The notes: generated from the sequence alone by a model not told the origin. DNA of 64,000 nt from a candidate division TM6 bacterium GW2011_GWF2_28_16 (GCA_001029715.1 CP011212.1:617715-681714); one strand, 5' to 3'. Counted from the stretch's first letter, positions 10,520-58,229 are shown. Program-made: numbers and translations.

Positions 10520-10640
10520 CTCCTAATTTTTTATAACTTTTAAAAGTCTCCATTAATTGCAGAGTCCTACAATTTCCCTCACACCCTTGAATCACAAGGC
10601 TAAACCATCTACTATATTTGTAGTTACAATAAAGGTACTG

Positions 10641-12416
10641 ATGGCAATAATGGATGAGCTCCAAATAAATCAACAAAAAGAACCTGAAAAAAAAGTTGCT
10701 GGGGAAGATTTTTTTGCTCGTGAAGCCGTACTTATTCAAGATTTTGCCTCAGGTCTACCAGTAACATTCGAGCCTGGAGATGGCTGGCAAATCGATCCAG
10801 ATAAAGGGAAAGCCAACTATGATCCAAAATTTTTTACTGACAAAGGCTATTCACAATCTCAGACACTGTTTGCCACCCTACACGAAGTAGATCATTTTAA
10901 AGAAGCTACTCAGGCTAAAAAATCACCAAAAGATAAAGCTATTTGGGAAGCGCGACAAGAAAAAGAGCAGGCTAATCGTCGCTACCATTCACTGGATAAC
11001 TGCATAGATGATGTTGGCAACAATTATCGTGTTTTACAATTTGCTCCTGCACTAAAAGAAGAAACCAGGCGACTGTATGCTGAACAATTGACTAAGAGCA
11101 CAGACCTAACCAAACATTCTAGACACATGCAGTTGGCCTACGCCATCTTACGTCAAGGGATGTTGCCTCAAGATCAGATTCAAGTTGCAGAGGAAGTTGA
11201 ACAAGCACTCCAAGAACTAAAAAATGTTAAAGGGAAAAAAGGTAGCTACGACATAATTAAAATGGTCACTGATCCTAATTGCAACCCAGCCACCAAAAGG
11301 AAACTAACTGAAAAATATATTGATCCGATTTTTGATAAATTATTCGAACAAGATAAAAATGATAAACAGAAAAACAAAGACAACGATCCCAATCAACAAA
11401 ATAATGATAACCAAAGTAATTCAGAGGAAGATTTCACAGATGAATATGATGAATTTGACGAATCAATGCCGCAGGGATTTGAACAAGAACAAATAGAATC
11501 CGTTTCTAAACCAGAATTTGGTAAAGACATCGCTGCTCGTCAACAATCAGGATACGAGGCTGAACATCAAGTGTCACAAAAAGATATGCTTGATTACAAA
11601 CAAGAATTTCAAAAAGTTATTCAATATATGGAACCTATCAGAGAACAATTTAGAAGAATTGTCGCAGAGCGTTTGATTCCTAAACGTAGACTTATTTCTG
11701 GTCGTGATGAAGGAATTATGATTAATCCCGGTTTAGCGGGGATTGCGCAAGAAGCTTTCAATAGAGGTCAATATGATGGACCATTTTTTAATGATTTTGA
11801 GGGCAGAGTTGTACGAGAAGAACTACCATCAGCATTTGAAATTTCTGGAGTATTTGATCGTAGCGGATCGATGGCATCTGGTAACAGAATTGAAGAACAA
11901 AGAAGGGCGGCTATATTACTAATGGAATCTCTACAAGAATTCATGGATCAACCAGAAGTTAAAGAAAGACTCTTAGACCCAGATCTATATGCTTCATGTG
12001 AAATAAGGTCTTTTGGTGGAACGAAAGAAAATGTGGTTATCAAACCTTTCTCAAAAGAATTAGCTGAGAAACAAAGAATTGAAGTCTTTAAAGTTTTAAA
12101 TGATTGCTCTGGATGGTCTACCGATGACGATGTTTCTCTTGGACAAATATTAGATGAGATGAAAGCCAGAGAGCAGTTTGAGACAGGATATTTAAATAAA
12201 GTAAAAACTAGGAAAATTAAAAAAATAGTGGCTGTTTTTTCTGATGGTGGAAGTTCAAACCAAACAGTTTTCGATCAGAGAATACAAACACTTTCTGAAA
12301 TGGGCGTACAAGTCGTCCAGTATCGAAAAATTGATGGAGTAACTGAATTTGTACCAAAAATGTCAGAAGTTCTTAAACAAGGGTTGGATGAACTCTGCTA
12401 TCATGAAGAAAGGTAA
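10641..12416 (+). CDS. vWA (MIDAS) domain protein with an N-terminal HExxH putative metallopeptidase domain (DUF2201_N/DUF2201-like architecture). The ORF-track start at 10557 probably over-extends the N-terminus.
   Basis: An N-terminal LHEVDHF motif and a low-complexity acidic/N-rich linker. The C-terminal vWA has a MIDAS DRSGSM (DxSxS) motif plus downstream T and D positions. An ATG at 10641 is preceded by AAAGG. Confidence 0.6.
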   Translation: MAIMDELQINQQKEPEKKVAGEDFFAREAVLIQDFASGLPVTFEPGDGWQIDPDKGKANYDPKFFTDKGYSQSQTLFATLHEVDHFKEATQAKKSPKDKAIWEARQEKEQANRRYHSLDNCIDDVGNNYRVLQFAPALKEETRRLYAEQLTKSTDLTKHSRHMQLAYAILRQGMLPQDQIQVAEEVEQALQELKNVKGKKGSYDIIKMVTDPNCNPATKRKLTEKYIDPIFDKLFEQDKNDKQKNKDNDPNQQNNDNQSNSEEDFTDEYDEFDESMPQGFEQEQIESVSKPEFGKDIAARQQSGYEAEHQVSQKDMLDYKQEFQKVIQYMEPIREQFRRIVAERLIPKRRLISGRDEGIMINPGLAGIAQEAFNRGQYDGPFFNDFEGRVVREELPSAFEISGVFDRSGSMASGNRIEEQRRAAILLMESLQEFMDQPEVKERLLDPDLYASCEIRSFGGTKENVVIKPFSKELAEKQRIEVFKVLNDCSGWSTDDDVSLGQILDEMKAREQFETGYLNKVKTRKIKKIVAVFSDGGSSNQTVFDQRIQTLSEMGVQVVQYRKIDGVTEFVPKMSEVLKQGLDELCYHEER

Positions 12417-12421
12417 CTTTT

Positions 12422-14854
12422 ATGCAAGACATTAATGGAGAAATATCTCAACCATTTGCACCAGGTATATATCGAAAACTAGAAACGGCAGCTGGATCAA
12501 TAAAATCATTATTTGAATCAAAAATTAAAACGGAAAGCTCATCTAGCACAGTTGAAGAGCGAGCTAATACTTTACTCCAGTTATTATTAGATAAAGTTGA
12601 GCTACAAGTTGATATTGCTCGTCGAGCAACAACAATTGTGGATGCTTTAGGTCTAGATGGAAGTGCTCGCCAAAGAAAACTACAAGAACTTAAGTCATTA
12701 AATAATCAATCTTCAATAAATGAAAATAAGAACTCTAATGAGAGTCAATTGTCCGCAGCGAATATAAACGAAGCAGATATTGTAAGTGGTAAATTATCGA
12801 TGTCTGACTTAATGAAAAGTATTAAAACAACTCCAAAGACTGAAGGCATCAATTCACAAACAGAGCAAGAAAACCAGCTTTTAGCGGAGAGTAAAAGACA
12901 ATTATCTAAAATAAATGAACAGGCTGAAATACTAATAAACGATACTCAGGTTGTTGAGCATTATCAAAACATGCACCAAGAAAAACTAAAACTATACCGT
13001 AAAGTCAGAGAAGCGGCTTCTGGCAAGAAAGCTATTCGAGATATTGAAATCATGCAAGAGAGATTAGCTAGACAAGTTTTTCTAAATAAACGCACTTTTT
13101 CTCCTGCTGAAGAAGCGGTTACTAAACAAAATCAATTAATTTCAAAGGCGATTGAAAAACGCATTGCCGACCTTATATCAGATCCTGAGGTTTTTGATTT
13201 AATGAGATGGCGACAATTGAGAGAATATCAAATCGGTCTAAAAAAAGACAGATTTGCCGAAACTCCAAGCAGAACAAAAATGTTAGCTGAAATTAGGCAA
13301 ATGTGGTCAGAAGGTAGAAAAGTTTTAGCTACTGGTCCAACTGGAAGTGGTAAAACAGAATTATTTTTTCATGCTTCAAGATCTTTGCTTGGTAGCGAAC
13401 CAGAAAGAGCTACTGGTCATGAACTATTAACTTCATATGAAATATATGGCAAAGCTACTGGTAAAGGGTTTGAGCCAGGACCACTCACAAGAGCTATTGA
13501 TAACAATAAACCTTTTGTGTTGGACGAAATTAATCTAGTACCAAATAAAATTTTAATGCGTTTAAAGACTGATCTTAATGCTAGACCAGGGCAAGAAATA
13601 ACTATTCAAGAAGAAAATGGAGTGCGACATCAAGTCAAAGATAATTTCGTGGTTGGCGCCACAGCCAACGTAAAAAGCGAAAAACATCCAGATCGAGAAA
13701 AACTTGATCCAGCCCTAGTGCGTATGTTTGAACCGCTTCCAGTTGATTACCTACCACCAGAAGAATTGCACGACATGATGCTAGCTCTATTAATGGATAT
13801 AAAAGGTGGTATTCAGCTTTCAAGCAAAGATGATTTAGCTGCCTTAGCTGAACTATGTATGTCCACTACATGGACGCAAAAAGCGTATCAAGGATATGAA
13901 GTTGAATTAAATAACGGTGACAAACTCTATGCTCGCGGTGGGGAATCTACTGGCAAAATAGCCACACTAAGAGAAGCTGTTCTCGATCCAGGCAAAGCAC
14001 TGGATATGGTTAATGGTTGGGATGATTCAAGATTGAAGGGTAAAACACTTAGAGAACATATTAATGCCAAAATTATTCAATTTGTTAAAAACGAAAACTT
14101 TCCTGAAGAAGATCGTTATCACTTAATCCGCATTTTCGCCTTAAATGAATTTTTGAAAGGAGTAGACGTTAATGAGCTAGGAATTAGCGGCCTAGATCAA
14201 GCTACTTTAGATGCTTGGAATGGCTTCACTGGTCGTAAAGTGAAAGCAGGAGATTTATATCTCGATGCCAATAAAGTCGCCAAAATTGATCCTTTCGGAA
14301 CCGTAAGAAGGCCTGATGGGTCAGACGTTGATGATCTACTTGGCGAAGATGAAACAGAAGAAATGGAAGATGAGGACATAGACGAAGAAAACCATCTTGC
14401 GATTGGAATAAAAGCATTTGAGCAAAGAAGAAGAGAGAAAAACCAATCTACACAAATTGATCCAGAGGCAAAAGAAATTCTCGATCAACTAGATAAATCT
14501 GAGCTAAAAAAATTTCTAAAACGTGAAGATAAATATCAAATTTATCCAGACAAACTCAATGATATATATCTTATGTATCCATCTACTTTAGAAGAAATCA
14601 TAAGAAAATATAGAGAAATATTCTTTGACCAAGATACTCAGGAAAATATAGGCAATGTGTTCGATTTATTGAAAAGGTTTATAATACTAGTTAAAGAAAT
14701 AAAACAATCTAATGTTAATTTTCCAAAAGATGTAATGATAATTGCGAAAAAAACAGATAGTATTTTAGAAACATCTAATAGTGCATCTACAATGCCTACC
14801 ACTAGAGAAATGTGTGAAAAACTTGTCAAACAAATTTTTGAGCTAGCTAAGTAG
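12422..14854 (+). CDS. Large AAA+ ATPase of the MoxR/AAA_5 (dynein-related) class, partner of the upstream vWA protein
   Basis: The central AAA module has Walker A GPTGSGKT, Walker B FVLDEIN and sensor/arginine finger-like positions. A ~300-aa N-terminal coiled-coil/low-complexity region and a ~350-aa C-terminal extension with the acidic tract DDLLGEDETEEMEDEDIDEEN flank it. Confidence 0.65.
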   Translation: MQDINGEISQPFAPGIYRKLETAAGSIKSLFESKIKTESSSSTVEERANTLLQLLLDKVELQVDIARRATTIVDALGLDGSARQRKLQELKSLNNQSSINENKNSNESQLSAANINEADIVSGKLSMSDLMKSIKTTPKTEGINSQTEQENQLLAESKRQLSKINEQAEILINDTQVVEHYQNMHQEKLKLYRKVREAASGKKAIRDIEIMQERLARQVFLNKRTFSPAEEAVTKQNQLISKAIEKRIADLISDPEVFDLMRWRQLREYQIGLKKDRFAETPSRTKMLAEIRQMWSEGRKVLATGPTGSGKTELFFHASRSLLGSEPERATGHELLTSYEIYGKATGKGFEPGPLTRAIDNNKPFVLDEINLVPNKILMRLKTDLNARPGQEITIQEENGVRHQVKDNFVVGATANVKSEKHPDREKLDPALVRMFEPLPVDYLPPEELHDMMLALLMDIKGGIQLSSKDDLAALAELCMSTTWTQKAYQGYEVELNNGDKLYARGGESTGKIATLREAVLDPGKALDMVNGWDDSRLKGKTLREHINAKIIQFVKNENFPEEDRYHLIRIFALNEFLKGVDVNELGISGLDQATLDAWNGFTGRKVKAGDLYLDANKVAKIDPFGTVRRPDGSDVDDLLGEDETEEMEDEDIDEENHLAIGIKAFEQRRREKNQSTQIDPEAKEILDQLDKSELKKFLKREDKYQIYPDKLNDIYLMYPSTLEEIIRKYREIFFDQDTQENIGNVFDLLKRFIILVKEIKQSNVNFPKDVMIIAKKTDSILETSNSASTMPTTREMCEKLVKQIFELAK

Positions 14855-16699: not shown

Positions 16700-17848
16700 C
16701 TACCAACCTGTAATCTCTATTTCATCATCAGTTTGTGGTGACTTAATGCCGTTATTTTCTGCTAGTGTCTTTGACACAAATTCCTCACTGCTGTATTCTT
16801 CAATTTTCTTTTTATAAAATAAAACGTCGCTTTCTATTCTTTCCAATAATTGTGCTTTCGCCTCCTCTTTATTATCCAATTTTGCCAAAGCAATGGGCCT
16901 GAGTCTATCAATCATTGCTAATTTTCTTTGATAAGACAAGATGTTATTTTCAATTGCCTCTCTGGTTTTTGGTTTCCAGTCTTCTTCAGAAGCACTACGG
17001 TTAACAATATTAAAAAACATTGGGGTAAAATAATTTTGTATTAAATCACTCTGCGATTTTTCTTGTTTTGCATCTCCGACATAATCAAATGAGTTAATAA
17101 AATCAATAAATCCAAACCCTGATTTTTCATCATACATTATATTTTTACTCTTATTTTCCATTGGTAGACCTCTTTGCCAGGCAATTAATAAACTGTCGAA
17201 ACATTGATTAATCTGTTCATCGCTGATATTCTCTACCACATCTGGGTTTAATTTGTTCAGTTGTTGGCCGGGTATTTTTTCAGCAATTGTGACCCCATCT
17301 TCTACTGAAGCAGCTACAATCTGTTCAAAATGTTCTTCACCATCAATATATAAAGCACCCATCATATAAGCTCCTACATCACCTGGGCTTGGTCGATATC
17401 TCATCACATACTCTTTGCCGCTAATCACAACATTAAAAACATTTTGGGCAATATGAGCCTGATGACCTCTTATATCTTCAAGCTGTTTAATTTGCTGTAA
17501 AAAATCTCTTACCTCAGATTGGTATTGTTTGTAATTATTTAATCGCTGCTCCATATAACGAATAATTCGCTCTTTTTCTTCACCCAACGAATCCAAAAAT
17601 TGCTTATATTCTTCTGCCGATACTACATTGATGATGTCGCCCAACTTCATTTCTCTTCTTTCCCATCCATGATTCTTTATATCGTCTTTATTAACCTCAT
17701 AACTAATCCCCAGAAATGCTGCTCGAACAGCATTGCCCACGATATCGCTATAAATACGCTCTCTGTCACCATATTTAACTTCGTTATGACTGGCAAATCC
17801 CACCAATTTAGCTACATTGTAATTTTGATCTTCATTCATGTATTTCAA
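16700..17848 (-). CDS. Hypothetical protein with a possible degenerate protein-kinase-like (APH-like) fold
   Basis: AT-rich. The segment …NIMYDEKSGFGFIDF… resembles the catalytic-loop/DFG region of the APH/choline-kinase fold, but it lacks the HxD catalytic residues. Confidence 0.3.
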   Translation of the reverse strand: MKYMNEDQNYNVAKLVGFASHNEVKYGDRERIYSDIVGNAVRAAFLGISYEVNKDDIKNHGWERREMKLGDIINVVSAEEYKQFLDSLGEEKERIIRYMEQRLNNYKQYQSEVRDFLQQIKQLEDIRGHQAHIAQNVFNVVISGKEYVMRYRPSPGDVGAYMMGALYIDGEEHFEQIVAASVEDGVTIAEKIPGQQLNKLNPDVVENISDEQINQCFDSLLIAWQRGLPMENKSKNIMYDEKSGFGFIDFINSFDYVGDAKQEKSQSDLIQNYFTPMFFNIVNRSASEEDWKPKTREAIENNILSYQRKLAMIDRLRPIALAKLDNKEEAKAQLLERIESDVLFYKKKIEEYSSEEFVSKTLAENNGIKSPQTDDEIEITGW

Positions 17849-18753: not shown

Positions 18754-20232
18754 GTGTCTAGCGATTATGAAGTTCTGGCAATTACCACTTTGCAAAAATA
18801 CTTTGGCTTTAACAATTTTAGGCCAGGTCAATTGGCGATTATCACTGCCATTCTAGAAGGCAAAAACGTCTTGGCAATTTTACCAACTGGCGGTGGCAAA
18901 TCCATTTGTTTCCAAGTGCCGGCTCTCGCTCTGGATGGAACTGCTCTGGTAATTTCACCGCTCATTTCCCTAATGAAAGATCAGGTCGATCACTTGGAAG
19001 AGAAGGGCATTAACGCCAGTTACCTGAGTAGTAATTTAGAAAAAGCAGAAATTACTTTGCGTCTAAAAAAGCTGGCTGAAGGAAAATATAAAATCTTTTA
19101 TTTAGCACCAGAGAGATTGGCTAATCAAAAAATTATCGATATTTGCCAAAAAATAAAAATCTCTCGCCTCATCATCGACGAAGCTCATTGCATTAGTTTG
19201 TGGGGTCATCAGTTCCGTCCGAACTATCAAAAAATTCCCCAATTTGTCGAAAAAATTCAAAAAAAATCAGAAAAAATTGCTTTAGCCGCCTTTACAGCTA
19301 CTGCCACTAGCATGGTCAGTGTAGAAATTAAGAATTTTTTAGAATTAGAAAAAGCGACTGTTTTTAGTGGCGGTTTTTTGCGTAAAAATTTAATTTTTCA
19401 CAATTTAATTTGTGACTGCATTTGGACTAAAAATATCTATTTATTTAAGCTGCTTAAAGTCCACCAAAGTGAAAATATTATTATTTATTGCTGTACGAGA
19501 GTAGAGTGTGAGCGTTTGCTGAGACTCATTAAACATTATGATTTTAGCAATCGCTACCAGATAGATATTTATCATGGCGGATTAGACAAAGACAAAAGGG
19601 AAAACTGTCAAAATGATTTTCTAAGCGGCAAAATTAAAATTATTATTGCCACCAACGCCTTTGGTATGGGCGTCGATAAAAGCGATGTCCGCGTAGTTAT
19701 TCATTATCAAATTTCTGCCAATTTAGAAAATTATTATCAAGAAGCTGGACGTGCCGGTCGCGATGAAAAATTGAGCTATGCCTATTTGCTCTATAGTGAA
19801 AAGGATTTATTAATTCAAGCTGAAATGATTAATAAAAATTATGAAGATTTAGATAATCCAAGAAGAAAAATTGAAATTTCTAAACTTAAAACTATCAAAA
19901 ACTATACCATCAGTCGAAGCTGCTTACAAGAAAAAATTATTAAATATTTTGGACAAAACGAATCAGCTTCACTCTGTCAAAATTGCCATCATTGTCTCCA
20001 AAGAAAAATCGAATTAGACGAAAAAGAACAACAATTTATTCAAAAATTAGAACGAATCAATCAACTCTACCTAGAAAAATGTGATACTGAAAGTCTGCCT
20101 AATCTTTTTACTATTAAACAAATGGAGCTGATGGCGATTTTGGAAGTCAGAACCTTCAGCGAATTAAAAAAGATTCCTGGAGTCGGAAGTGGTATAATAA
20201 GCTTCTATGCAAATCAAAGAATTAGTGGCTAA
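18754..20232 (+). CDS. recQ: ATP-dependent DNA helicase RecQ (short form without the HRDC domain)
   Basis: RecQ N-terminus (…QKYFGFNNFRPGQLAIITAIL…PTGGGKSICFQVPAL), the DEAH box (IDEAHCISLWGH), helicase C and the RQC zinc-binding cysteines. Confidence 0.85.
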   Translation: MSSDYEVLAITTLQKYFGFNNFRPGQLAIITAILEGKNVLAILPTGGGKSICFQVPALALDGTALVISPLISLMKDQVDHLEEKGINASYLSSNLEKAEITLRLKKLAEGKYKIFYLAPERLANQKIIDICQKIKISRLIIDEAHCISLWGHQFRPNYQKIPQFVEKIQKKSEKIALAAFTATATSMVSVEIKNFLELEKATVFSGGFLRKNLIFHNLICDCIWTKNIYLFKLLKVHQSENIIIYCCTRVECERLLRLIKHYDFSNRYQIDIYHGGLDKDKRENCQNDFLSGKIKIIIATNAFGMGVDKSDVRVVIHYQISANLENYYQEAGRAGRDEKLSYAYLLYSEKDLLIQAEMINKNYEDLDNPRRKIEISKLKTIKNYTISRSCLQEKIIKYFGQNESASLCQNCHHCLQRKIELDEKEQQFIQKLERINQLYLEKCDTESLPNLFTIKQMELMAILEVRTFSELKKIPGVGSGIISFYANQRISG

Positions 20233-20563
20233 GTATCAAGAAATTGCTGACTTCTTAAATACCCGCTGGCCTCTCAAAGATCATAATCAAAGAGTCTTCG
20301 CTCGTACCATGAAAATCGTCGAGGAATTAGGTGAATTGGCTGATGAAATTCTAACTAGCATGAACTTGCAACGCAATTCAAAAATCGCTAAATTTTCCAG
20401 AGAGAATTTGGAGGATGAATTTGCCGACGTTTTAGGTTCTTTAATTTTGCTCGGTTGTGAATTAGAAATTGACGTCGAAGCCATCATCCAGAAAAAAATT
20501 GATTTCACCCGCGAACGTTTTGAAATGGATAAAGATAAAAAAGATCAAAGCTCCAAAAACTGA
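20207..20563 (+). CDS. MazG-like nucleoside triphosphate pyrophosphohydrolase
   Basis: EExGExxDE…EDEFADVL motif pattern of the all-alpha NTP-PPase family. Confidence 0.65.
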   Translation: MQIKELVAKYQEIADFLNTRWPLKDHNQRVFARTMKIVEELGELADEILTSMNLQRNSKIAKFSRENLEDEFADVLGSLILLGCELEIDVEAIIQKKIDFTRERFEMDKDKKDQSSKN

Positions 20564-22398
20564 TAAAGCTCGCCGTCGCTAAAACCTCGTTTTCTATAAT
20601 ATTCTTTTGTGCCAATCGCTGAGATGACGGCTAGTTTTTGATAGCCTTCTTTCTTGCTAATCTCTGCTGCTTTGAGAATAAGTTTTTTGCCAAAACCAAA
20701 ATGCTGAGCTTTTTCTTCACCTTTTTGCCCGATAGATAAACTACGACCATAGACGTGAATTTCTCTGATCATCGCGGCACCGTCGAGTTCTTCGATGACC
20801 TCATTCTTTTTTACAGTTGGTAAACTCAAACGCAAGAAGGCTAGAATCTTATCGCCATAAACAAATTGCAAAAACTTTTCTTGGCTGATGCTGGTTTTGT
20901 AATTAGTAATTTTGAGCTTCACTTCCTTAGGATCAAATACGGTTGAACGGATTTCGCGCGAACGAATATCTTGCATTTTTTGCTTAGTTTTATTGACGTA
21001 ATTTTCGGCGATTTGTCTAAAATTGCTCTTAGTATTACCCACCACAATATCTTGAGCAGGAATATCACGGATCATTCTAGTGATGCGACAATAGGCGGGA
21101 GTATGAGTCAAAGTGAAGGCAGTAATTTCTAATAATTCTTCGTGGGTATATGGTTTCCACAAACCTTTTTTGTAATATCTCATTAGCTCAGCAGTCTCGA
21201 TCAGAGAACAAGGATAGATTTTTAATTCATCTGGGCAAAAATCTTGATCGCTAAAAAGTTTTTTAAAATCTCTTTTATCTTTGACGACACTGCCACCATA
21301 AAGATTGGCCATAAAATGAATGTGCAATTTAAAACCAGCCTGACGCAAAAGCGCAAAAGCTTTTCTGATCGCTTGCACACCGTGACCTCTTTTATTTTTT
21401 CTTAAAATTTCATCGTCAAGCGATTGGATACCTAGCTGAACTTTAGTGGCCCCTAAGCGGCGAATATTTTTCACACTTTTTAGCGTAATTTCATCTGGTC
21501 GAGTTTCGATTACTAAACCCACGCAGCGTTGTAGCGCCGTCTCATTTTTAACTTGTTCTTTTTCTAATTCTAGCCAATCAGCTTTTTGATATTCAAGCAC
21601 CCCCAAAGCATTTTCTGGAGCTAAATAATACTTGGTGACCAATTGATTATAAGTATCAGAAATGTTTTCACCAGCAATTTGCAGCTTAGCAAAATTGGCT
21701 TGATTTTCTTTGGCATCAGTACTTAAAAAAGTCTTGGTCTGCCATTTTTTTTCAGTTTCTTTGAATTTTTTTTGAAAATTTTGGTATTTTTTTACAATTT
21801 TTACTGTGTCATTTTTAGTTTGAAAATCATTCATGGCTCTAAAGCATTCTTTCACAAACCAAATCTGATAAGTTTCTGGATAAGCCGTCCAAGTGCCACC
21901 TAAAATAATTAACTCAATTTTATCAACTTTGTGGCCCATGGAAAACAAAGCCTCTAGACGGTTGGTGGTTTGCAAATATGGATCGAAGTAATTTTTTTCA
22001 GCTCGCTGTGCACCTGGCTCACTAGCTAAATAACTTTTAGGCATACGCAAATCATTTGGACAAAAAATACATTTCCCCGGACAAGGATAGGGCTTAGTCA
22101 GAACTGTCACCGGTGCCACACCGGAAATAGTGCGGACTGGTTTTAATAAAATCTTTTCTACTAATTTGGGATTATATTTTTTAAGACCTTGCGTGCCAGC
22201 CAACTTTTTATATTCTTCAATAATCTCAGAATAACTCCAATGAGCGCCATTACTTTTTTGATATTTTTTAATCAAACGCAACAAATCCTCAATTGATTTA
22301 TCTAAGTTTTGCTCTAGTTCTTGTAGAAGAGAAATTATATTGTTTTCCATCTGGTGTTTATTATAACGCAAGTCTGACATAAAATAGGCTTGATGCAA
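20545..22398 (-). CDS. Elongator Elp3-like protein (radical-SAM domain fused to a GNAT acetyltransferase; tRNA wobble-uridine modifying enzyme homolog)
   Basis: A radical-SAM cysteine cluster (CPGKCIFCP) and an Elp3-type central region (…LGIQSLDDEIL…GHG…FKLHIHFM…). The C-terminal GNAT domain ends (…KGYQKLAVISAIGTKEYYRKRGF). Confidence 0.75.
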   Translation of the reverse strand: MHQAYFMSDLRYNKHQMENNIISLLQELEQNLDKSIEDLLRLIKKYQKSNGAHWSYSEIIEEYKKLAGTQGLKKYNPKLVEKILLKPVRTISGVAPVTVLTKPYPCPGKCIFCPNDLRMPKSYLASEPGAQRAEKNYFDPYLQTTNRLEALFSMGHKVDKIELIILGGTWTAYPETYQIWFVKECFRAMNDFQTKNDTVKIVKKYQNFQKKFKETEKKWQTKTFLSTDAKENQANFAKLQIAGENISDTYNQLVTKYYLAPENALGVLEYQKADWLELEKEQVKNETALQRCVGLVIETRPDEITLKSVKNIRRLGATKVQLGIQSLDDEILRKNKRGHGVQAIRKAFALLRQAGFKLHIHFMANLYGGSVVKDKRDFKKLFSDQDFCPDELKIYPCSLIETAELMRYYKKGLWKPYTHEELLEITAFTLTHTPAYCRITRMIRDIPAQDIVVGNTKSNFRQIAENYVNKTKQKMQDIRSREIRSTVFDPKEVKLKITNYKTSISQEKFLQFVYGDKILAFLRLSLPTVKKNEVIEELDGAAMIREIHVYGRSLSIGQKGEEKAQHFGFGKKLILKAAEISKKEGYQKLAVISAIGTKEYYRKRGFSDGELYQFLEL

Positions 22399-23181
22399 AA
22401 AGGCTTAATTAAAGCTCTCAACCAACTCAATCAAGATTTCTACGCACAAATTAGTGAAGATTTTAGTGCCAGCCGCAACTTTTCATGGCAAGGTTGGACA
22501 GAAATTATTAAATATTTACCAAAAAAAGAAAATCTAAAAGTTCTGGATATCGCTTGTGGCAATGGCCGCTTCGTAGAATTCTTAAAGCAAAATCTTCAAA
22601 GTTCTTTTTCCTATTTAGGTTTAGATAATTCCAAAAGCTTATTAAAAATCGCCCAAAATAAATTTAAGGAACAGCAATTTGAATTTTTCGATTTAATCAA
22701 AAATTATTTAACTAAAGAAAAAATTGTTTTTAATACTCAAGAAAAATTTGATTTAATTATTAGTTTTGGACTTAGTCATCATCTGCCTTCCGCCAAAATT
22801 AGAAAAGAATTTTTACAAAGTCTCAAAAGTAAACTAAACAAGAATGGCCTAATCGTCGTTAGCAATTGGCAATTCGCCAAAGAACAAAATCGTTTTCAAA
22901 AAAATACATTAAATTGGCAAAAAATAATTAAAAATCCAAAAATAAATCTTTGGCAAAAAATAAAACTCATTTTCCTTTTATTAAATTTAGAAAAAAATGA
23001 TTTTTTACTGGATTGGCGAAAAGGGGACAAAGCCAATCAAGTCTTTCGCTATTGCCATCACATCAAAGAAAAAGAAATGCTGGGCCTCGTCAAAAAAAGT
23101 GGATTAAAAGTAATCGCCAAATTATCTGCTGATGGTAAATCGCAACATCTCAATCAGTACTTCTTACTTACAGCACTTTGA
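22390..23181 (+). CDS. Class I SAM-dependent methyltransferase
   Basis: VLDIACGNGRF (motif I) and LIISFGLSHHL (motif II). It is divergently transcribed from the Elp3-like gene. Confidence 0.75.
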   Translation: MMQKGLIKALNQLNQDFYAQISEDFSASRNFSWQGWTEIIKYLPKKENLKVLDIACGNGRFVEFLKQNLQSSFSYLGLDNSKSLLKIAQNKFKEQQFEFFDLIKNYLTKEKIVFNTQEKFDLIISFGLSHHLPSAKIRKEFLQSLKSKLNKNGLIVVSNWQFAKEQNRFQKNTLNWQKIIKNPKINLWQKIKLIFLLLNLEKNDFLLDWRKGDKANQVFRYCHHIKEKEMLGLVKKSGLKVIAKLSADGKSQHLNQYFLLTAL

Positions 23182-23368: not shown

Positions 23369-23439
23369 TGCCTGATCGTCTAATGGCAGGACAGAGGCCT
23401 TTGAAGCCTTCAATCTTGGTTCGAATCCAAGTCGGGCAT
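23369..23439 (+). tRNA. tRNA-Gln (anticodon UUG)
   Basis: Acceptor stem TGCCTGA/TCGGGCA (one G-U pair), anticodon loop CTTTGAA and T-loop GGTTCGAATCC. Confidence 0.8.
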
Positions 23440-23444
23440 CATTT

Positions 23445-23478
23445 TAAAAAATCTCACCAAAGCGTGAGATTTTTTAAA
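23445..23478 (+). terminator. Rho-independent terminator after tRNA-Gln
   Basis: AAAAAATCTCACcaaagcGTGAGATTTTTTAAAA. Confidence 0.75.
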
Positions 23479-23652
23479 ATTATGTGCTGGCAATTGGATA
23501 CGGGCACTTTAGTTCGCGCCACATGGCGAAAGAATTGAGCCAGGTTAGTGCATGCGAGCGATTGCAAAAAGCGAGTCGTAAATCTGAGGTTGAGTATTAG
23601 CTCGGTTACCTCACTTAAACAGTTATATTTATTTTTGCTATAATCCCAATAT

Positions 23653-24523
23653 ATGAACACTCCAATGAAAACTTTAAAAAATGGTTTTTCTATGCCCATG
23701 TTCGGCCTAGGCACTTGGCAAATGGGTGGCAGAGAAACTCGCGATTTTCAAAATAATGATCAAAAAGATATTTCAGCAATTCAGAAAGCAATTGAACTAG
23801 GTATTATGCACATAGACACAGCAGAAAGCTATGCTGACGGTTATGCAGAAACCCTTTTAGGCCAAGCAATCCTTGGATATGATAGGTCAAAACTTTTTTT
23901 AACGACTAAGATACATGCTGAACATCTAAAATATGATGACGTTTTGCGATCGTGTGAAGCCAGTTTAAAAAGAATGAGATACAGATTATTTAGATCTATA
24001 TCTCATTCATTCTCCAAGCATGCAAATCCCTATTCAAGAAACGATGCGTGCTATGGACAAACTAGTTCAAGATGGCTTAGTAAAAAATATTGGTGTTAGC
24101 AATTTTAAAACAGATCGCTTAAAAGATGTTCAAAAACACACAAATAATAAAATTGTTGTCAATCAAGTTTATTACAATCTTTTAATGAGGGAGCCTGAAC
24201 ATGAAGGGCTTTTAACATATTGCCAACAAAACGATATTTTTCTAGAGGCTTATCGACCATTAGAAAAAGGCATGCTTTTAGATAATCAATCAGCACTCAT
24301 TATAGATTTGGCAAAAAAATATAATAAAACCCCATCTCAAATTGCCATCAATTGGTTAATCTCTCAAGAAAACGTGATTACACTTTCCAAAACCTCAACC
24401 ATAGAGCATTTAGAAGAAAACCTCGGAGCAATAGATTGGAAAATGGATCAAGAAGATATTGAAAAACTAAGAAAAGATTTTCCAAATCAAGTGAAAATCC
24501 CTGAAAATCTGCCGTTAAAATAA
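23653..24523 (+). pseudogene. Aldo/keto reductase interrupted by a single frameshift near 23970-23985. It is split into ORFs 23653-24099 and 24020-24523.
   Basis: The N-terminal AKR motifs (LKNGFSMPMFGLGTW, …IDTAESY) are in frame 1. The continuation (…TDYLDLYLIHSPSMQIPIQETMRAMDKLVQDGLVKNIGVSNF…) is in the +1 frame. The switch occurs at the AAAAAGAATGAGATACAG region. Confidence 0.7.
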
Positions 24524-30319: not shown

Positions 30320-31180
30320 TTAAATAAACTCTTTGATTGCTTTGGTCAGATCAACCTTGTTTGGGAATTGTTCAATAAGAGTCTTCTCATTTAACTGAGG
30401 AATTCCTTTGTGGTAAGCAGAGCGATTATTGTTTTGATATAAAATTCCCAAACTAAGTTTCTGACTGTTTAGTATATCTGTCATTGCTTGAGCTTGATTA
30501 CTAGGATCGTAAGCTTCATCTAAATCAAAAACATTTTCCTGATACCAAGCGTAGTCTTGTTCTTTGTTAAAACTTGGGCAAGGCTGCTGAACATCAATCA
30601 AAGAAAAACCCTCGTAAAGAATACCTGCCTTAATTAGTTCGACCATTTGTTTAAGTTTGCCAGCATAAGCTCTAGCCACGAAGCCAGCTCCATTACCAAT
30701 AGCAATATTCAAAGCTAAGAGAGGAGTTTCAATTAAACCCTGAGGAGTAGATTTACTAACTGTTCCTTGAGCTGAGGTAGGAGAAGACTGACCAGTAGTT
30801 AAGCTATAGCGATGATTATTAAAAACCAAAGTCGTAATATCATGATTCCCACGACAAGCCGCCACTAGATGATTCAAGCCTTCACCATAAATATCACCAT
30901 CGCCACCGATCATAATTACTTTTTGCTTATGATTGGCTAATTTAATACCAATGGCATTTGCCATACCACGGCCATGAAGTCCATGCAAACCATAACACTT
31001 GATGAAATCAGCGGTATTACCACTGCAACCAATGCCAAAAACAATTACTACTTCCTCCATTGACAAGCCCAATTCAACTAAAGCCTGTTTCAAGGCAGTT
31101 AAAATGCTGAAATTACCACAACCAGGGCACCAAGTCGGTTGCATTGGAGACAATAATTTATCTAAAGTAATTTCTGTCAT
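30320..31180 (-). CDS. 2-oxoacid:ferredoxin oxidoreductase, beta (TPP-binding) subunit
   Basis: PTWCPGCGNF motif and the TPP-binding GGDGD block. It overlaps the stop of the alpha subunit gene. Confidence 0.85.
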   Translation of the reverse strand: MTEITLDKLLSPMQPTWCPGCGNFSILTALKQALVELGLSMEEVVIVFGIGCSGNTADFIKCYGLHGLHGRGMANAIGIKLANHKQKVIMIGGDGDIYGEGLNHLVAACRGNHDITTLVFNNHRYSLTTGQSSPTSAQGTVSKSTPQGLIETPLLALNIAIGNGAGFVARAYAGKLKQMVELIKAGILYEGFSLIDVQQPCPSFNKEQDYAWYQENVFDLDEAYDPSNQAQAMTDILNSQKLSLGILYQNNNRSAYHKGIPQLNEKTLIEQFPNKVDLTKAIKEFI

Positions 31181-32946
31181 ATTAATCGATATTGTTCATT
31201 TAGTTTTTGACTTACTAAAAATTCTAAAATGTCCTCACTATAAAAAGGTCGACCATCATAGCGCAAAATTGAACGCAAATTTGTCAAGCTAGTTTCTTTT
31301 TTAATCAAAGCTGCTAATTGTCCAGTTGAATCACCCTCTAAAACAAATAGCTCTGCTTTTTTATTTTTGACTAATTCTTCCAATTCAAGAGTAGGGAAAG
31401 GACAAACGCATGGCAGATGAATAAGAGCAATGTTTTTGGCTGCTTCATCAAGTAAAACTTCTCGCAAAACATTAACCGTCGAACCAAAAGAGATTAAAAT
31501 CTTTTCTGGATTCTCAGAACCCAAATAAAGAGGCTTTGGCAAATCTTTTCGTAAAGCTTCTAATTTAGCCGCTCGCTTATCAACTGCCTCTTTGGTAGTG
31601 ACCGCATCTTCCGTGGCAAAACCATATTCATCATGTTCATAGGAATTAGTTAATTGTAGAGCATTGGTCTGGCCAGGAATCGAACGCAGCGAAATGCCAT
31701 TCTCGCTTGATTTATAACGTAAATATTCGCCATCAACTAAGCCAGTCTCACCTAATTTGCCATCATTTAACATTGAAAAACGAGCATTCTGATTAGATAA
31801 AATCATCTTTGGCATACTCTGATGAGATTCCAAAATATATTTATCTGACATGATCAAAACTGGAAGCTGATATTTTTCGGCTAATTCGACTGCTAATTTA
31901 GCTAACTTATAATGTTCTTCCACATCGCCAGGAGTTAAAACCACTCGCAAAAATTCACCATGACCAGCACTTAGAATAAAATTCAGATCTCCCTGAGAAG
32001 TCCAGGTCGGCAAGCCAGTGGCTGGGCCCTGTCTAACTGCCTCTACTACAACTAAAGGAACCTCTGCCACTCCAACAAAAGATAGCGATTCAACCATAAG
32101 AGCAAAACCACCACCAGAACTGCCGGTCATCGCTCTCACTCCAGCAAAAGCAGCTCCAATAGCATGATTAATGGCTCCGAGCTCATCTTCGGCGTGTTTG
32201 ACTACAATTGGGTAGTCATTCTGTCTAGCAGCTAAATAATGTAAAATACCAGTGGAGGGAGTCATTGGATAAGCAGAATAAAACTGCAAACCAGCTGCCA
32301 AAGCACCAAGACCGATAGCCTCACTGCCAGTCATCAAAAGTTGTTCATCTACACCTGTAGAAATTAATTTACCAAAAGATTGCAGCTCACCCTTTTCAAT
32401 GAATTGTTGAGTGATCTCAAAGGCTGTTTTCAGCACTGCTAAATCTTTGACAGCAGCTTCCTTACTTCTGGCAAATTCATCTATTACCACTCGACCCATT
32501 GTCTCCAAGTCCATGCCAAACAAACAAGCACTTAGACCAAGAGCAGCAATGTTACTGGAAAGAGGATTAGCCCCTTGGTCTCTGGCAATTTTAGTTAAAT
32601 TAATGGCTATAACTTTAGCTTTCAATTCTGGATATTTACTAGCATCAAAAGCATTAGCATTAACAACTACTAAAGAGCGTTCATTTAGTTCTGCCAAATG
32701 ATCAAGAATAAATTTTTCGTGAAAAACAATTAAAAGATCTAGAAAACGACGCTGACAAGTTGCCCCTCTTAAAGCAGCGTGCACTTGACCACTCTGCAAA
32801 CCACCCTTAATTAGGGAAGGATATTCATAATAATTAAAAACGGCGAGACCTTGTTTTTTACAAGCTTTAGCAAAAAGCTTGGCTGATGACATAACCCCTT
32901 CACCAGCTTTAGCAGAAATTTTCCAATTAAGCGATTCCAAGTCCAT
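31177..32946 (-). CDS. 2-oxoacid:ferredoxin oxidoreductase, alpha subunit (fused gamma+alpha domains)
   Basis: An N-terminal POR gamma-like domain, then the pyruvate-flavodoxin/ferredoxin oxidoreductase core (…YPMTPST…, …GGGFALM…). Confidence 0.85.
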   Translation of the reverse strand: MDLESLNWKISAKAGEGVMSSAKLFAKACKKQGLAVFNYYEYPSLIKGGLQSGQVHAALRGATCQRRFLDLLIVFHEKFILDHLAELNERSLVVVNANAFDASKYPELKAKVIAINLTKIARDQGANPLSSNIAALGLSACLFGMDLETMGRVVIDEFARSKEAAVKDLAVLKTAFEITQQFIEKGELQSFGKLISTGVDEQLLMTGSEAIGLGALAAGLQFYSAYPMTPSTGILHYLAARQNDYPIVVKHAEDELGAINHAIGAAFAGVRAMTGSSGGGFALMVESLSFVGVAEVPLVVVEAVRQGPATGLPTWTSQGDLNFILSAGHGEFLRVVLTPGDVEEHYKLAKLAVELAEKYQLPVLIMSDKYILESHQSMPKMILSNQNARFSMLNDGKLGETGLVDGEYLRYKSSENGISLRSIPGQTNALQLTNSYEHDEYGFATEDAVTTKEAVDKRAAKLEALRKDLPKPLYLGSENPEKILISFGSTVNVLREVLLDEAAKNIALIHLPCVCPFPTLELEELVKNKKAELFVLEGDSTGQLAALIKKETSLTNLRSILRYDGRPFYSEDILEFLVSQKLNEQYRLI

Positions 32947-33017
32947 AATATATGGACATTGTACGAGCCTGCCTTTGAATGGTCAATTACTTATCTATTT
33001 GCTACAATGAAAATATT

Positions 33018-33476
33018 ATGGCAAATACTTTACTCATTTACGGAAGCTTAACAGGTAATACTGAGGGTGTCGCTCATAAAATTCAAGAAATGAGCCAAGC
33101 AAGAGGAAAAGAGATTGAAGTCAAAAATGCTCTTGACGCAGACCTAGCAGATTTGACCGGACCTTATAGTAGTTTTATTTTTGCTTCTTCAACTTGGGAT
33201 GATGGTTTACCACAAGCCGATTTTGCCGACTTTATCGAAAGAGTTAGTGCCTCCAAACCAAATTTATCCGGCAAAAAAGTTGCCATCTTAGGTTTGGGAG
33301 ATAGTAATTATGTACACTTCTGCGGAGCTACTGAAACCATTGAACAGCTTTTTATCGGAGAGATGGCTGGTCAGAAAATCATCGAGAACTTACGCATCGA
33401 CGGCTATCCAGAAATGGAAGAAAACCAGACCGCTCTTAAAAATTGGGTAGATAAATTAGTTGAGCTTATTGACTAG
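33018..33476 (+). CDS. Flavodoxin. The ORF-track start at 32979 is likely an N-terminal extension.
   Basis: LLIYGSLTGNTEGVA FMN-binding loop and …FIFASSTWDDG…. Confidence 0.8.
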   Translation: MANTLLIYGSLTGNTEGVAHKIQEMSQARGKEIEVKNALDADLADLTGPYSSFIFASSTWDDGLPQADFADFIERVSASKPNLSGKKVAILGLGDSNYVHFCGATETIEQLFIGEMAGQKIIENLRIDGYPEMEENQTALKNWVDKLVELID

Positions 33477-52655: not shown

Positions 52656-54698
52656 TCAAATTTTTTTGATTTCTAGGGGAATCTCTTCTTCTTTTTTCTC
52701 GAGGGAAAACAATTGGCTGGCTGAGATCAGGCCATCTTTTTCTAAAGCATAGTTTTTAGCAAAAGCAGAGATGAAAACTTTGTCAAAAGAATGCTTAATA
52801 ACTTTAGATTTTGAAAATTCAAAAGGCATAACCAATGATTGAGCTTTTTCACTGCCTTCTTCAAATAACGACATAATCAGGTTGTTGGAAAATTGATTAC
52901 CACTAGATAATTTTACTAATAAATTTAAAGATTTTTGCTTTTTAAGTAAGTAGAACAATTTATAAATAAGGATAAACAAATAGACTAATAAAATTGCACT
53001 ATTAAACATACTTTGATAACGCAAAGCAAAAAGCAAAGCAAATAATAAAGAAATAATCAAAAACCAAAATGGATAATCTAATAAATACAAAACAAAAATA
53101 CGCAATCTCTCAAAAAATGGCAACTTTTCTTGACCGGTAGCCCGCAAGGTAGGAATTAAGATCGGCTGACCATGATAATTCTCATCATCAAACATTTGAT
53201 TTTGATAGAACTGCCAAAAATCTAGTTGATTTGGCTTCTCATCGCCAATTGGATAATAGAAGTTACCATCTTTGACCTGCAATCTCCAAGAGCTACTGAT
53301 TGGAAAATTTAAATCGTTGAAATTACCCTGCAAATTAGTAATAGTAAAATCAAGCAACTGCTCATTTTGATCAAACAGCTCCACTTTCACTAGGGGACTG
53401 GCTAAAGTTTCCTTATATTCAAAAACCAAATGCTTATTAGCTTTAAATATAAACGGGAAAAGGAGCATTGAAACTTTTTTTAACAAGGAAATGGAAATAT
53501 CTTTCATAAACTTGCTTAGTAAAAGCAAAAAGGCTGAGAAATAAAATAAAAGCAAAAATAAAGAAGTGAGAAATAAGGATAAGTTTAGCCAAGTTTTCGA
53601 CTTTAAAAAAGTTCTTAGATAATCTCCAGTTGTCTCTGGCAAAAGTTCTATCAATTCGTCCCCAACTTCATGGATAATTTCTTTTGGCGGAACAATTGGA
53701 ATAATTCCAGTCGGTGCTGGTGATTGGGTTGAAGTCAAAGTTGGACTAATGCTTGGTTTAGAACTTGGCTCAACACTCGTGCTAACACTAGGGCTTAGCG
53801 TTGGAGTTGCAGTTGGAGTTGTCGTTATAGTTGTCGGCGTGGCTGTTGGCCAGTATTGTAGACTGATGCGAAAATAAACTTTTTCCAAAACACTAACCTG
53901 ACCAGCCTGATCAGTAATAATAAAATCAAGCCTAATATCAACATCGCGAGGTAGAATTCCCAGTTTTAATTCATAATAACCACTACTATCAATAGTAGTA
54001 TTAAAAATCTGAGTAGGATCGTCTGGGATAATAACAGTCAACTGAACGTTACTATTAGCTTCGCCACCAGCTATAAGGATTGGCTCATTAGCAGTAGCAT
54101 CATTTTGAAAAATAAGGATTGGGCTACTTGGCACAGTTCCCACATCTGCGGCTGAAATACTTACAACAGTATCTCCAATTTTTGTAAGTATAAAGCTTGG
54201 CGCCTGAGTATCAATTCTAAAGTCCCAGGTATCCGATGATGCACTCAGCCCTGCATAATCAACTGCCACTATTTTCCAGGTGGCAGAACCGTCTGAAAGA
54301 GCGTTTTTTGGAGTTAGAGTGTAAGTCCCATCTATTCCATCATAATCTAACAAATAATGGCTATTATCAGTGTCTACCAAGGGAACATTGCTATAAAAAA
54401 CATTATTATTTAAATAAAAAACGTAATGTGACAAAGCAAGATTGTCAGTTGATTCATACCATTTAAAAGAAGGGGTGCTGTCACTTAAAATCGCTCCATC
54501 ACTAGGTTCTATTAGAATTGGTGCTGATGGTGCTTCTAAATCTGGTATGTTTGCACTTATATTTATATCTTCAGCTAAAACCACAGATTTAGCAGAAAAA
54601 AGCAAAAAAAGAGTCAAAAAAGATAAGAAGAAATTAGTTTTCTTGCTGTGGATTTTTAGGTTCTTCATTATTTGTTTCCAAATCAGTGGTGGAAGCAA
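52656..54698 (-). CDS. Large surface/membrane protein: signal peptide, Ig/FN3-like repeats, Thr/Pro-rich linker and a C-terminal multi-TM domain
   Basis: Signal peptide, beta-rich repeats, the linker TATPTTITTTPTATPTLSPSVSTSVEPSSKPSISPTLTSTQSPAPTG and at least 5 hydrophobic helices at the C-terminus. Confidence 0.5.
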   Translation of the reverse strand: MLPPLIWKQIMKNLKIHSKKTNFFLSFLTLFLLFSAKSVVLAEDINISANIPDLEAPSAPILIEPSDGAILSDSTPSFKWYESTDNLALSHYVFYLNNNVFYSNVPLVDTDNSHYLLDYDGIDGTYTLTPKNALSDGSATWKIVAVDYAGLSASSDTWDFRIDTQAPSFILTKIGDTVVSISAADVGTVPSSPILIFQNDATANEPILIAGGEANSNVQLTVIIPDDPTQIFNTTIDSSGYYELKLGILPRDVDIRLDFIITDQAGQVSVLEKVYFRISLQYWPTATPTTITTTPTATPTLSPSVSTSVEPSSKPSISPTLTSTQSPAPTGIIPIVPPKEIIHEVGDELIELLPETTGDYLRTFLKSKTWLNLSLFLTSLFLLLFYFSAFLLLLSKFMKDISISLLKKVSMLLFPFIFKANKHLVFEYKETLASPLVKVELFDQNEQLLDFTITNLQGNFNDLNFPISSSWRLQVKDGNFYYPIGDEKPNQLDFWQFYQNQMFDDENYHGQPILIPTLRATGQEKLPFFERLRIFVLYLLDYPFWFLIISLLFALLFALRYQSMFNSAILLVYLFILIYKLFYLLKKQKSLNLLVKLSSGNQFSNNLIMSLFEEGSEKAQSLVMPFEFSKSKVIKHSFDKVFISAFAKNYALEKDGLISASQLFSLEKKEEEIPLEIKKI

Positions 54699-55641
54699 CT
54701 GGATTAATTTCCTTACTAGCTTCTTTACGCTTCTTTACTGAAATGAACAAAATAATGCCTATCAAAATTACAACTAAAGTTAATAAAATTATTTTGACAG
54801 GAATCAAATATAAACCAGCGCTTGCCACCATCACGCCACCTTGACTACCATAGGCTGACTCGACAATTGCTTTATAGTAACCAAGACCCCAAACTTTATT
54901 CCAAGTTCCAGAAAAACTTCTATTACTTTTTGGGAAAATGTTTTTAGCCTCAAGCTCAATACTTTCAATTTCTTTGCCAAATAAATTATAAATTTTTAAA
55001 ATTGGCTTCGTATTAATATGGACATCTGACTCATTATTTATATCCAAAGAAAAATCAACTGGACCGTTTTCTAAAAACTTTGGCCAATTAAAACTGGTTA
55101 TATAAGCTTCTTCATTAATTGGACCTGTTACTATCACATAGAGTAAAGTTCCCACCCTTTGTGAAATACCAGCTCCAGAATCTACAACTGGATTTGAATT
55201 TATTGGGCGATGATAAATCATTGCATAGTGACCACCAGGAAGAGCGTCTTTTGGAACTTCAATTAAAACATTCACTATCGCAACTTCTTCATTGGCCAAG
55301 GTATGTTCTGCTGGAGCCAAAGTTAACCAAGTAGCTAGACTCCAACGTAAATCTGCTTCTTCTGCACTAATTACTATGGGAGTAGAACCATCTTCAGCCA
55401 CTACAAAATCGGCAACCTGACTTTCTAATACAACTTGGTCAGTAGAACCATTGCGCACTTTGATTTGAACTTGTTTTTTCTCTCCAGGAGCAAGACTAAT
55501 GCTGAAATCGTCCCCTAACCGAACTGGTGTTGCTGTTAAAGACATTGAAGAAGAAGCTTGGGCTTGATTGAAGAAGGAAAAAAGAAAAAATAAACTTAAA
55601 ATAAGAGTATTAATTATTGAAGATGGGCAGATCTTTTTCAT
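54634..55641 (-). CDS. Membrane-anchored cell-surface protein, DUF916/DUF3324-like (PapD-like beta-sandwich N-domain), paralog 1
   Basis: Signal peptide, then LTATPVRL…GEKKQVQIKVRNGSTDQVVLESQVADF. A C-terminal TM helix is followed by KKRK. It is similar to ORF 57160-58218. Confidence 0.45.
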   Translation of the reverse strand: MKKICPSSIINTLILSLFFLFSFFNQAQASSSMSLTATPVRLGDDFSISLAPGEKKQVQIKVRNGSTDQVVLESQVADFVVAEDGSTPIVISAEEADLRWSLATWLTLAPAEHTLANEEVAIVNVLIEVPKDALPGGHYAMIYHRPINSNPVVDSGAGISQRVGTLLYVIVTGPINEEAYITSFNWPKFLENGPVDFSLDINNESDVHINTKPILKIYNLFGKEIESIELEAKNIFPKSNRSFSGTWNKVWGLGYYKAIVESAYGSQGGVMVASAGLYLIPVKIILLTLVVILIGIILFISVKKRKEASKEINPVASTTDLETNNEEPKNPQQEN

Positions 55642-55656
55642 ATTTTTGTTTTTAAT

Positions 55657-58218: not shown

Positions 58219-58229
58219 ATTAACTTAAT

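Follow-up and report, generated by a model that had tools for sequence, protein, structure and literature searches.

Divergent Elp3 and Trm9-like methyltransferase genes as a candidate module for wobble-uridine modification in bacteria

In this study, we analyzed a 64,000-nucleotide stretch of DNA from candidate division TM6 bacterium GW2011_GWF2_28_16 (GCA_001029715.1 CP011212.1:617715-681714; hereafter the window), in which the genes for an Elp3-like enzyme and for a class-I S-adenosylmethionine (SAM) methyltransferase are transcribed divergently from nearly abutting start codons. By sequence, the closest characterized relative of the methyltransferase is Trm9, which is seen in both search directions, with modest margins. 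The same gene pair is found in at least four bacterial phyla. Judged from these sequence data, the Elp3 would probably produce 5-carboxymethyluridine at the wobble position 34 of tRNA (cm5U34), which the methyltransferase would then esterify to 5-methoxycarbonylmethyluridine (mcm5U34), and the pair would thus represent a self-contained two-gene wobble module of the Elongator type. Modifications of the mcm5U type are usually described as eukaryotic and archaeal, while bacteria are said to use MnmE/MnmG.

The divergent gene pair and its recurrence in bacteria

The layout of the locus, counted from the first nucleotide of the window, is as follows:

20545-22380, minus strand: Elp3 gene, 611 residues from the ATG at 22380, predicted full-length radical-SAM/acetyltransferase enzyme for tRNA U34
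22381-22392, no strand: spacer between the divergent ATG starts, 12 nucleotides (42 nucleotides with the Elp3 start at 22350)
22393-23181, plus strand: Trm9-like class-I SAM methyltransferase gene, 262 residues, GenBank name 'UbiE'

The maximal open reading frames (ORFs) extend from 20545 to 22398 on the minus strand (617 residues) and from 22390 to 23181 on the plus strand (263 residues), as in the original prediction, which had proposed that the two starts overlap by 9 nucleotides. This overlap requires a TTG start in both genes and was not retained, whereas the divergent, nearly abutting arrangement is real. The methyltransferase ATG at 22393 lies one codon inside the ORF and is used by all public gene calls, and the protein translated from it matches AKM81603.1 exactly (262 residues, a Candidatus Pacebacteria record), which places the window in a bacterium of the candidate phyla radiation. 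Apart from the ATG at 22380, Elp3 could start at the ATG at 22350 (601 residues) or the TTG at 22398 (617 residues), and the public gene calls use ATG 22380 or ATG 22350. The realistic layout is that of two divergent genes that are 12 or 42 nucleotides apart and do not overlap. With a spacer of this length, both promoters must sit within the neighboring gene; a promoter and terminator consensus scan of the divergent region returned nothing above shuffled background. The locus is also present in 21 contigs from independent assemblies, and more than 100 independent loci show the two genes divergent and nearly abutting, which is far beyond chance.

The linkage between the two genes was analyzed in both directions. 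In the forward direction, one genome per GTDB species was scanned with a methyltransferase profile, and 80 loci were returned. Elp3 was located upstream on the opposite strand in 56 of them; the starts were less than 350 nucleotides apart in 43 of these paired loci and separated by 0.4-2.5 kb in the other 13. In one further locus, Elp3 was found 6.7 kb away on the same strand, and the flanks of the remaining 23 contained no Elp3, although six of these had too little upstream sequence to judge. According to the record labels, the loci belong to Patescibacteria (Pacebacteria, Dojkabacteria, Woesebacteria and others), Chloroflexota (Anaerolineae, Caldilineaceae, Aggregatilineales), Myxococcota and Acidobacteriota (Thermoanaerobaculia, including Ca. 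Multivorans). The occurrence in large-genome Myxococcota, Chloroflexota and Acidobacteriota indicates that the pair is not confined to reduced genomes. In the reverse direction, an Elp3 alignment was searched against metagenome contigs, which yielded 68 loci with enough upstream sequence. The methyltransferase occupied the same divergent position in 61 of these, within 400 nucleotides in 57 cases. Thus, the pairing is not due to chance.

When all ORFs of at least 40 residues in 160 loci were clustered, Elp3 was the only widely conserved neighbor of the methyltransferase, and no third gene was conserved. Other recurrent clusters corresponded to shadow ORFs inside the two genes or to lineage-specific neighbors. 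RecQ and a MazG-like gene were considered as further module members and rejected, because they adjoin the pair only in Patescibacteria. In about six loci from Chloroflexota, the gene after the methyltransferase is TrmB-like, and in one Aggregatilineales locus (L028, 10001-11725, plus strand) a Trm9-like domain and the domain of a TrmB-type (Methyltransf_4) tRNA m7G methyltransferase are joined in a single ORF of 574 residues.

Identity of the two enzymes

The methyltransferase was recognized as a class-I SAM enzyme in the original prediction, and this is in line with its Pfam matches (Methyltransf_31/12/23/25/11) and with an AlphaFold model (predicted local distance difference test score, pLDDT, of 94.7); neither Pfam nor NCBIfam assigns it beyond the generic class-I level. 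Its best PDB match by sequence is Trm9 of Yarrowia (5cm2_Z), with 2.6e-7 for the single sequence and 3e-12 for the family profile, and in the profile search this was the sole top match with an alignment running through the C-terminal lid. For the opposite direction, the Yarrowia Trm9 sequence was rebuilt from the PDB alignments and then used for retrieving fungal Trm9 sequences. Comparing the methyltransferase family with 22 fungal Trm9 sequences by hhalign gave a probability of 99.46% (E 3.4e-22), with an alignment that extends from residue 16 to residue 250 in 198 columns. The fungal Trm9 profile scored the window methyltransferase at 56.1 bits, whereas no non-Trm9 chain of the entire PDB exceeded 41.4 bits, and it matched all 135 methyltransferase family ORFs in the retrieved loci. 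The family comprises 1,968 clusters at 50% identity (E ≤ 1e-30). The 120 matches listed from a family profile search of a large protein database were all family members, with no named archaeal or eukaryotic Trm9 among them. IMG labels several homologues as 'tRNA (uracil-5-)-methyltransferase TRM9'.

GenBank names the protein 'Menaquinone biosynthesis methyltransferase UbiE'. The UbiE models score it far below their cut-offs (45.8 bits versus 216 for NF001244; 37.1 versus 158 for TIGR01934), and the matches to UbiE, UbiG and BioC models are weak and generic. The methyltransferase does therefore not group with small-molecule enzymes, a clustering that had been named, together with the presence of mnmE and mnmG, as what would speak against the predicted pathway. 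The UbiE name is probably wrong and has probably spread to homologues. Similarly low scores were obtained with enzymes of the bacterial cmo5U (uridine 5-oxyacetic acid) pathway; the CmoB model gave 25.2 bits versus a cut-off of 209, and CmoA (4gek) matched the family profile with 3.4e-5 only.

The active site of Trm9 has been studied in yeast by Létoquart et al., who reported that alanine mutants of R29, D72, H116, W145, W168, R241, Y243 and N271 inactivate the enzyme, and in whose model the carboxylate of cm5U and its uracil ring are surrounded by R29, H115/H116, R241 and N271 (PMC4678810). We mapped the residues of yeast Trm9 (ScTrm9) onto the window protein by hhalign and counted their conservation in 134 bacterial homologues from four phyla. 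The equivalents of the eight essential residues are R28, D78, H130, W159, W208, R219, C221 and N254. Seven of them are kept and near-invariant (R28, D78, H130, W159, W208, R219 and N254), and they are encoded within the following features:

22441-22476, plus strand: N-terminal Trm9 signature Y17...F24-S-x-S-R28, with Y17 equivalent to ScTrm9 Y18 and R28 to R29
22546-22569, plus strand: SAM-binding motif I, D52-IACGNGR, conserved
22624-22626, plus strand: D78, acidic SAM-ribose ligand, equivalent to ScTrm9 D72, in 131 of 134 homologues
22777-22782, plus strand: H129-H130, equivalent to ScTrm9 H115/H116 (H116 essential), each in 134 of 134
22867-22869, plus strand: W159, equivalent to the essential ScTrm9 W145, proposed to stack on U34, in 134 of 134
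23014-23016, plus strand: W208, equivalent to the essential ScTrm9 W168, in 119 of 134, with F in the other 15
23047-23058, plus strand: R219-Y-C221-H, equivalent to ScTrm9 R241-Y242-Y243-H244, R in 134 of 134
23152-23154, plus strand: N254, equivalent to ScTrm9 N271, proposed to read O2/N3 of the uridine, in 127 of 134

In the N-terminal signature, Y17 is conserved in all 134 homologues and R28 in 133; the latter corresponds to ScTrm9 R29, which has been proposed to position the cm5U carboxylate (PMC4678810).

The second gene encodes a full-length Elp3-like protein, as had been predicted, although its GenBank name is 'hypothetical protein'. It is matched above the cut-off by the NCBIfam ELP3 model TIGR01211 (483.8 bits versus 350; residues 40-611, model positions 18-516). 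Among the solved Elp3 structures, archaeal MinElp3 is the best PDB match (6ia8; 1e-102, 348 bits); bacterial DmcElp3 (5l7j) matches with 4e-93, and the yeast and mammalian structures with about 1e-75. In all cases the alignment consists of two blocks, and both the radical-SAM and the acetyltransferase half are covered. The main features of the protein are:

22057-22083, minus strand: radical-SAM [4Fe-4S] motif CPGKCIFCP (Cx3Cx2C), read from the translation
21568-21825, minus strand: lysine-rich insertion of about 86 residues in the radical-SAM domain (residues 186-271), delimited by two separate aligned stretches that break around residues 189/271
20965-20997, minus strand: site of the archaeal/Dehalococcoides CxCxxC zinc motif, which reads KQKMQDI(RSRE) in the alignment to 5l7j and 6ia8
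20689-20706, minus strand: acetyl-CoA-binding motif QHFGFG in the lysine acetyltransferase (KAT)/Gcn5-related N-acetyltransferase (GNAT) half, from the alignment with the 6ia8 and 5l7j KAT domains

The predicted radical-SAM cluster is indeed encoded, and its cysteines C100, C104 and C107 are invariant in an alignment of 16 diverse bacterial homologues, as are Q559, H560, G562 and G564 of the acetyl-CoA-binding motif. All 48 full-length paired bacterial Elp3 ORFs contain the pattern CPGxC[IV][FY]C. The Pfam scan reported Radical_SAM and Radical_SAM_C only, and no GNAT model fired in it; the C-terminal GNAT half, which was also part of the prediction, is recognized by the alignments to Elp3 structures and by the conserved QHFGFG motif.

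The insertion of about 86 residues is not present in any solved Elp3 (bacterial Dmc, archaeal Min, yeast, mouse/human), and a single-sequence AlphaFold model of the protein (pLDDT of 34.9) was uninformative on its placement. The zinc cysteines are lost, with CxCIRC replaced by MQDIRS. These three cysteines have been described in the literature as strictly conserved in prokaryotic Elp3. Since eukaryotic Elp3 proteins are also reported without this site, it is not needed for Elp3 membership overall. Among the 48 paired bacterial Elp3 proteins, two subtypes are visible: 11 keep the CxCIRC cysteines and have a linker of 13-50 residues, and, with one or two exceptions, the others are devoid of these cysteines and contain 64-143 extra residues. 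The window Elp3 belongs to the latter.

Compared with the archaeal enzymes of M. infernus and M. jannaschii, the window Elp3 is likewise stand-alone and contains the full N-terminal region, but it has lost the CxCxxC zinc motif, and its cluster motif is Cx3Cx2C, as opposed to Cx4Cx2C in MinElp3. The spacing of the cluster motif and the insertion also distinguish it from eukaryotic Elp3, where Cx4Cx2C is found. DmcElp3 of Dehalococcoides mccartyi has the Cx3Cx2C motif in common with it, and the N-terminal radical-SAM parts of the two proteins can be aligned free of gaps. However, DmcElp3 lacks the first approximately 79 residues and the 86-residue insertion and has kept the zinc cysteines, and in each of these respects the window Elp3 is the opposite. 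DmcElp3 is the only bacterial Elp3 that has been studied biochemically; in the literature that we searched, it was described as a rare bacterial case, and no partner methyltransferase was mentioned.

Proposed pathway and alternative functions

The radical-SAM/acetyl-CoA chemistry is established for archaeal and eukaryotic Elp3. By virtue of its family membership, the stand-alone Elp3 of the window is expected to bind tRNA in a first step and to cleave SAM at its [4Fe-4S] cluster, generating a 5'-deoxyadenosyl radical. This radical would take a hydrogen from the acetyl group of acetyl-CoA, supplied in the acetyltransferase half, and the resulting acetyl-derived radical would be added to C5 of U34, which yields cm5U34. 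In a second step, for which the conserved active-site residues and the gene linkage argue, the Trm9-like methyltransferase would use SAM to methyl-esterify the carboxylate to mcm5U34, and it would probably act without a genetically linked Trm112. The near-zero divergent control region that they share holds the two genes together, and they are probably co-regulated. Our computations show which families the two enzymes belong to by sequence, how far their residues are conserved and that their genes are syntenic, and from these results we infer the chemistry, the tRNA substrates and the independence of Trm112.

The window also encodes a 2-oxoacid:ferredoxin oxidoreductase (alpha and beta subunits), whose genes adjoin a flavodoxin gene (30320-33476). 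On this basis, acetyl-CoA and a low-potential reductant would plausibly be available.

This pathway largely follows the original prediction of a two-step xcm5U-type modification of the wobble uridine. Trm9 as the nearest solved relative, the retained active site and the pairing in both directions support its core, the combination of an Elp3-type with a Trm9-type enzyme, at the in silico level. Further context in its favor comes from the Elp3-Trm9 gene cluster of Sulfolobus and from the TrmB-type tRNA methyltransferase domains that lie behind the methyltransferase, or are fused to it, in some Chloroflexota. Several observations weigh against it. In the PDB profile search, Trm9 is ahead of generic methyltransferases by a small margin (49.6 versus 45.6 bits), and with the fungal Trm9 profile the family reaches a median of only 39 bits. 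Partners are missing from the flanks of about 10% of the Elp3 loci and of a group of methyltransferase loci from Anaerolineae. In eukaryotes and archaea, Trm9 depends on Trm112, and neither a Trm112-like nor another conserved small ORF was found near the pair in the 160 loci. At the position of the essential Tyr243 of yeast Trm9, 117 of the 134 homologues have Cys, 7 have Val, 7 have Ala and the rest have Ser or Phe, and Tyr is never found. Finally, a 2020 review states explicitly that there are no nucleoside data for any bacterium with Elp3 (PMC7663514).

The Tyr243 replacement and the absence of a linked Trm112 gene would also be compatible with the main alternative, in which the methyltransferase is tied to Elp3 but catalyzes a different methylation from that of Trm9, e.g., at another atom of the Elp3 product or at a neighboring nucleotide of the anticodon loop in the same tRNAs, or makes a bacterial-specific cm5U derivative in place of the methyl ester. 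The same reading could account for a 27-residue insertion near residues 170-200, which is shared by the window protein and its closest relatives and is not present in more distant members. It is also in agreement with the fold searches, which placed other methyltransferases at least as close as Trm9, so that Trm9 was not singled out. Nevertheless, the residues modelled around the cm5U carboxylate and the uracil ring (R28, H129/H130, R219, N254 and W159) are near-invariant, which is hard to explain otherwise, and we consider a different methylation unlikely.

It is considerably less probable that the pair acts on a target other than tRNA U34, with Elp3 serving as a protein or small-molecule acetyltransferase or as a radical-SAM enzyme, and the methyltransferase finishing a metabolite. 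Elp3 has historically been proposed as a protein acetyltransferase, the NCBI names of the two proteins are UbiE and 'hypothetical protein', and no bacterial xcm5U has been observed (PMC7663514). On the other hand, only tRNA triggers acetyl-CoA hydrolysis by bacterial, archaeal and eukaryotic Elp3 (PMC6367351), the window Elp3 is full length and includes the N-terminal region covered by the ELP3 model, and the closest relative of its partner methyltransferase is a tRNA enzyme. That the methyltransferase is a UbiE/menaquinone-type or other small-molecule enzyme standing beside Elp3 by coincidence, as its GenBank name and the weak generic UbiE, UbiG and BioC matches might suggest, is hardly credible in view of the UbiE scores (37-46 bits versus cut-offs of 158-216) and the N- and C-terminal motifs, which are specific to Trm9 and lie beyond the Rossmann core that these enzymes share, and it is effectively refuted by the pairing in 56 of 80 and 61 of 68 loci across four phyla.

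The proposed two-gene mcm5U pathway is closely related to the eukaryotic system, in which Elongator and Trm9-Trm112 (ALKBH8 in animals) convert cm5U to mcm5U34 and to which both window enzymes are homologous. The Elp3 has the same two-domain architecture and motifs, and the methyltransferase aligns over nearly its full length and shares seven of the eight essential Trm9 residues. Unlike in eukaryotes, the window locus contains no Elp1, 2, 4, 5 or 6, as expected for prokaryotes, there is no linked Trm112, Tyr243 is replaced by Cys, and the two genes are physically paired. In archaea, Trm9 works together with Trm112 (Haloferax HVO_1032-Trm112), and the Elp3 and Trm9 genes are clustered in Sulfolobus solfataricus (PMC2584109; PMC6144793), which provides a precedent for their physical linkage. 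The canonical bacterial enzymes, MnmE/MnmG(-MnmC) for 5-(carboxy)methylaminomethyluridine, (c)mnm5U, and CmoA/CmoB/CmoM for cmo5U and its methyl ester mcmo5U, have the same target, C5 of the wobble uridine. A parallel exists between CmoM and Trm9, both of which convert a carboxyl side chain into its methyl ester. The canonical enzymes are nevertheless unrelated to the window pair, and CmoA and CmoB match the methyltransferase at the generic level only.

In the literature, bacterial Elp3 has been called "a rare example" or has been considered as restricted to Dehalococcoides, and "no direct evidence" is said to exist for bacterial xcm5U (PMC7663514 among other sources), while a paper from 2026 refers to "numerous bacteria" with Elp3 alone. 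In the incomplete literature that we searched, no publication was found on a bacterial Trm9 partner, on Elp3 in the candidate phyla radiation (CPR)/Patescibacteria or on MnmE/MnmG in CPR. Automated annotation (IMG/KEGG and the NCBI pipeline PGAP) already labels some homologues as TRM9 and Elp3. The locus thus adds a new member from bacteria, which has some variant features and had already been hinted at by automated annotation, to a known pathway.

With about 2,000 sequence clusters in four phyla, the conserved Elp3-Trm9-like pair predicts, in a testable way, that mcm5U is used for decoding by many uncultured bacteria, and from the sequence comparisons mcm5U is probably made by many bacteria. 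A more far-reaching proposal, which we put forward tentatively and which may well prove incorrect, is that at least four phyla including CPR make mcm5(s2)U34, i.e., mcm5U34 with or without 2-thiolation, by a Trm112-independent combination of Elp3 and a Cys-variant Trm9, that this system replaces MnmE/MnmG in CPR, and that its Elp3 forms a distinct subtype without zinc site and with an insertion of about 64-143 residues. A compensation for missing MnmE/MnmG had been suggested before; MnmE, MnmG and MnmA are not among the ORFs of at least 330 residues in the window, which covers 64 kb of an approximately 853-kb genome. For biochemistry, a compact Trm9 that is possibly active in the absence of Trm112 would be useful. 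The pair further provides a correction of the widespread "UbiE" mis-annotation and a handle on the spread of Elongator chemistry between domains.

Neighboring genes and other features of the window

The immediate surroundings of the pair contain the following features:

20207-20563, plus strand: small MazG-like gene, overlapping the RecQ 3' end (20207-20232) and, convergently, the last 19 nucleotides of Elp3 (20545-20563)
23369-23440, plus strand: tRNA-Gln(UUG), 188 nucleotides downstream of the methyltransferase
23441-23480, plus strand: terminator-like hairpin after tRNA-Gln(UUG), perfect 17-nucleotide inverted repeat

As a U34 tRNA of the class that is modified by Elongator in eukaryotes, tRNA-Gln(UUG) is a possible candidate substrate by analogy. 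The same tRNA lies within 0.1-4 kb of the pair in seven Patescibacteria relatives (L004, L005, L010, L013, L014, L017 and L018) and not in other phyla. A functional link between the pair and this tRNA was set aside as lineage synteny, because the adjacency occurs only in close Patescibacteria relatives. The 188-nucleotide spacer between the methyltransferase and tRNA-Gln is repetitive; it contains three copies of GCATCTTT(C/T)GTACC, two copies of a 35-nucleotide repeat and two copies of AGGGTCCGAAAT.

Further downstream, two overlapping ORFs on the plus strand (23653-24099 and 24020-24523) are the parts of a split aldo/keto reductase gene. As the gene is split in four independent assemblies, the frameshift is real, reflecting a pseudogene or recoding, and is not a sequencing error. 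Three large ORFs of 619, 810 and 382 residues (10557-14854, plus strand, and 16700-17848, minus strand) have no NCBIfam match, and the 382-residue ORF also has no Pfam match. The same holds for Pfam in five consecutive ORFs of 256-484 residues (54634-59742, minus strand), which lie beside the 16S rRNA gene. The latter is a full-length bacterial gene (60069-61556, plus strand), which covers model positions 1-1533 without a large insertion, and it is followed after about 900 nucleotides by tRNA-Ile(GAU) (62462-62536, plus strand).

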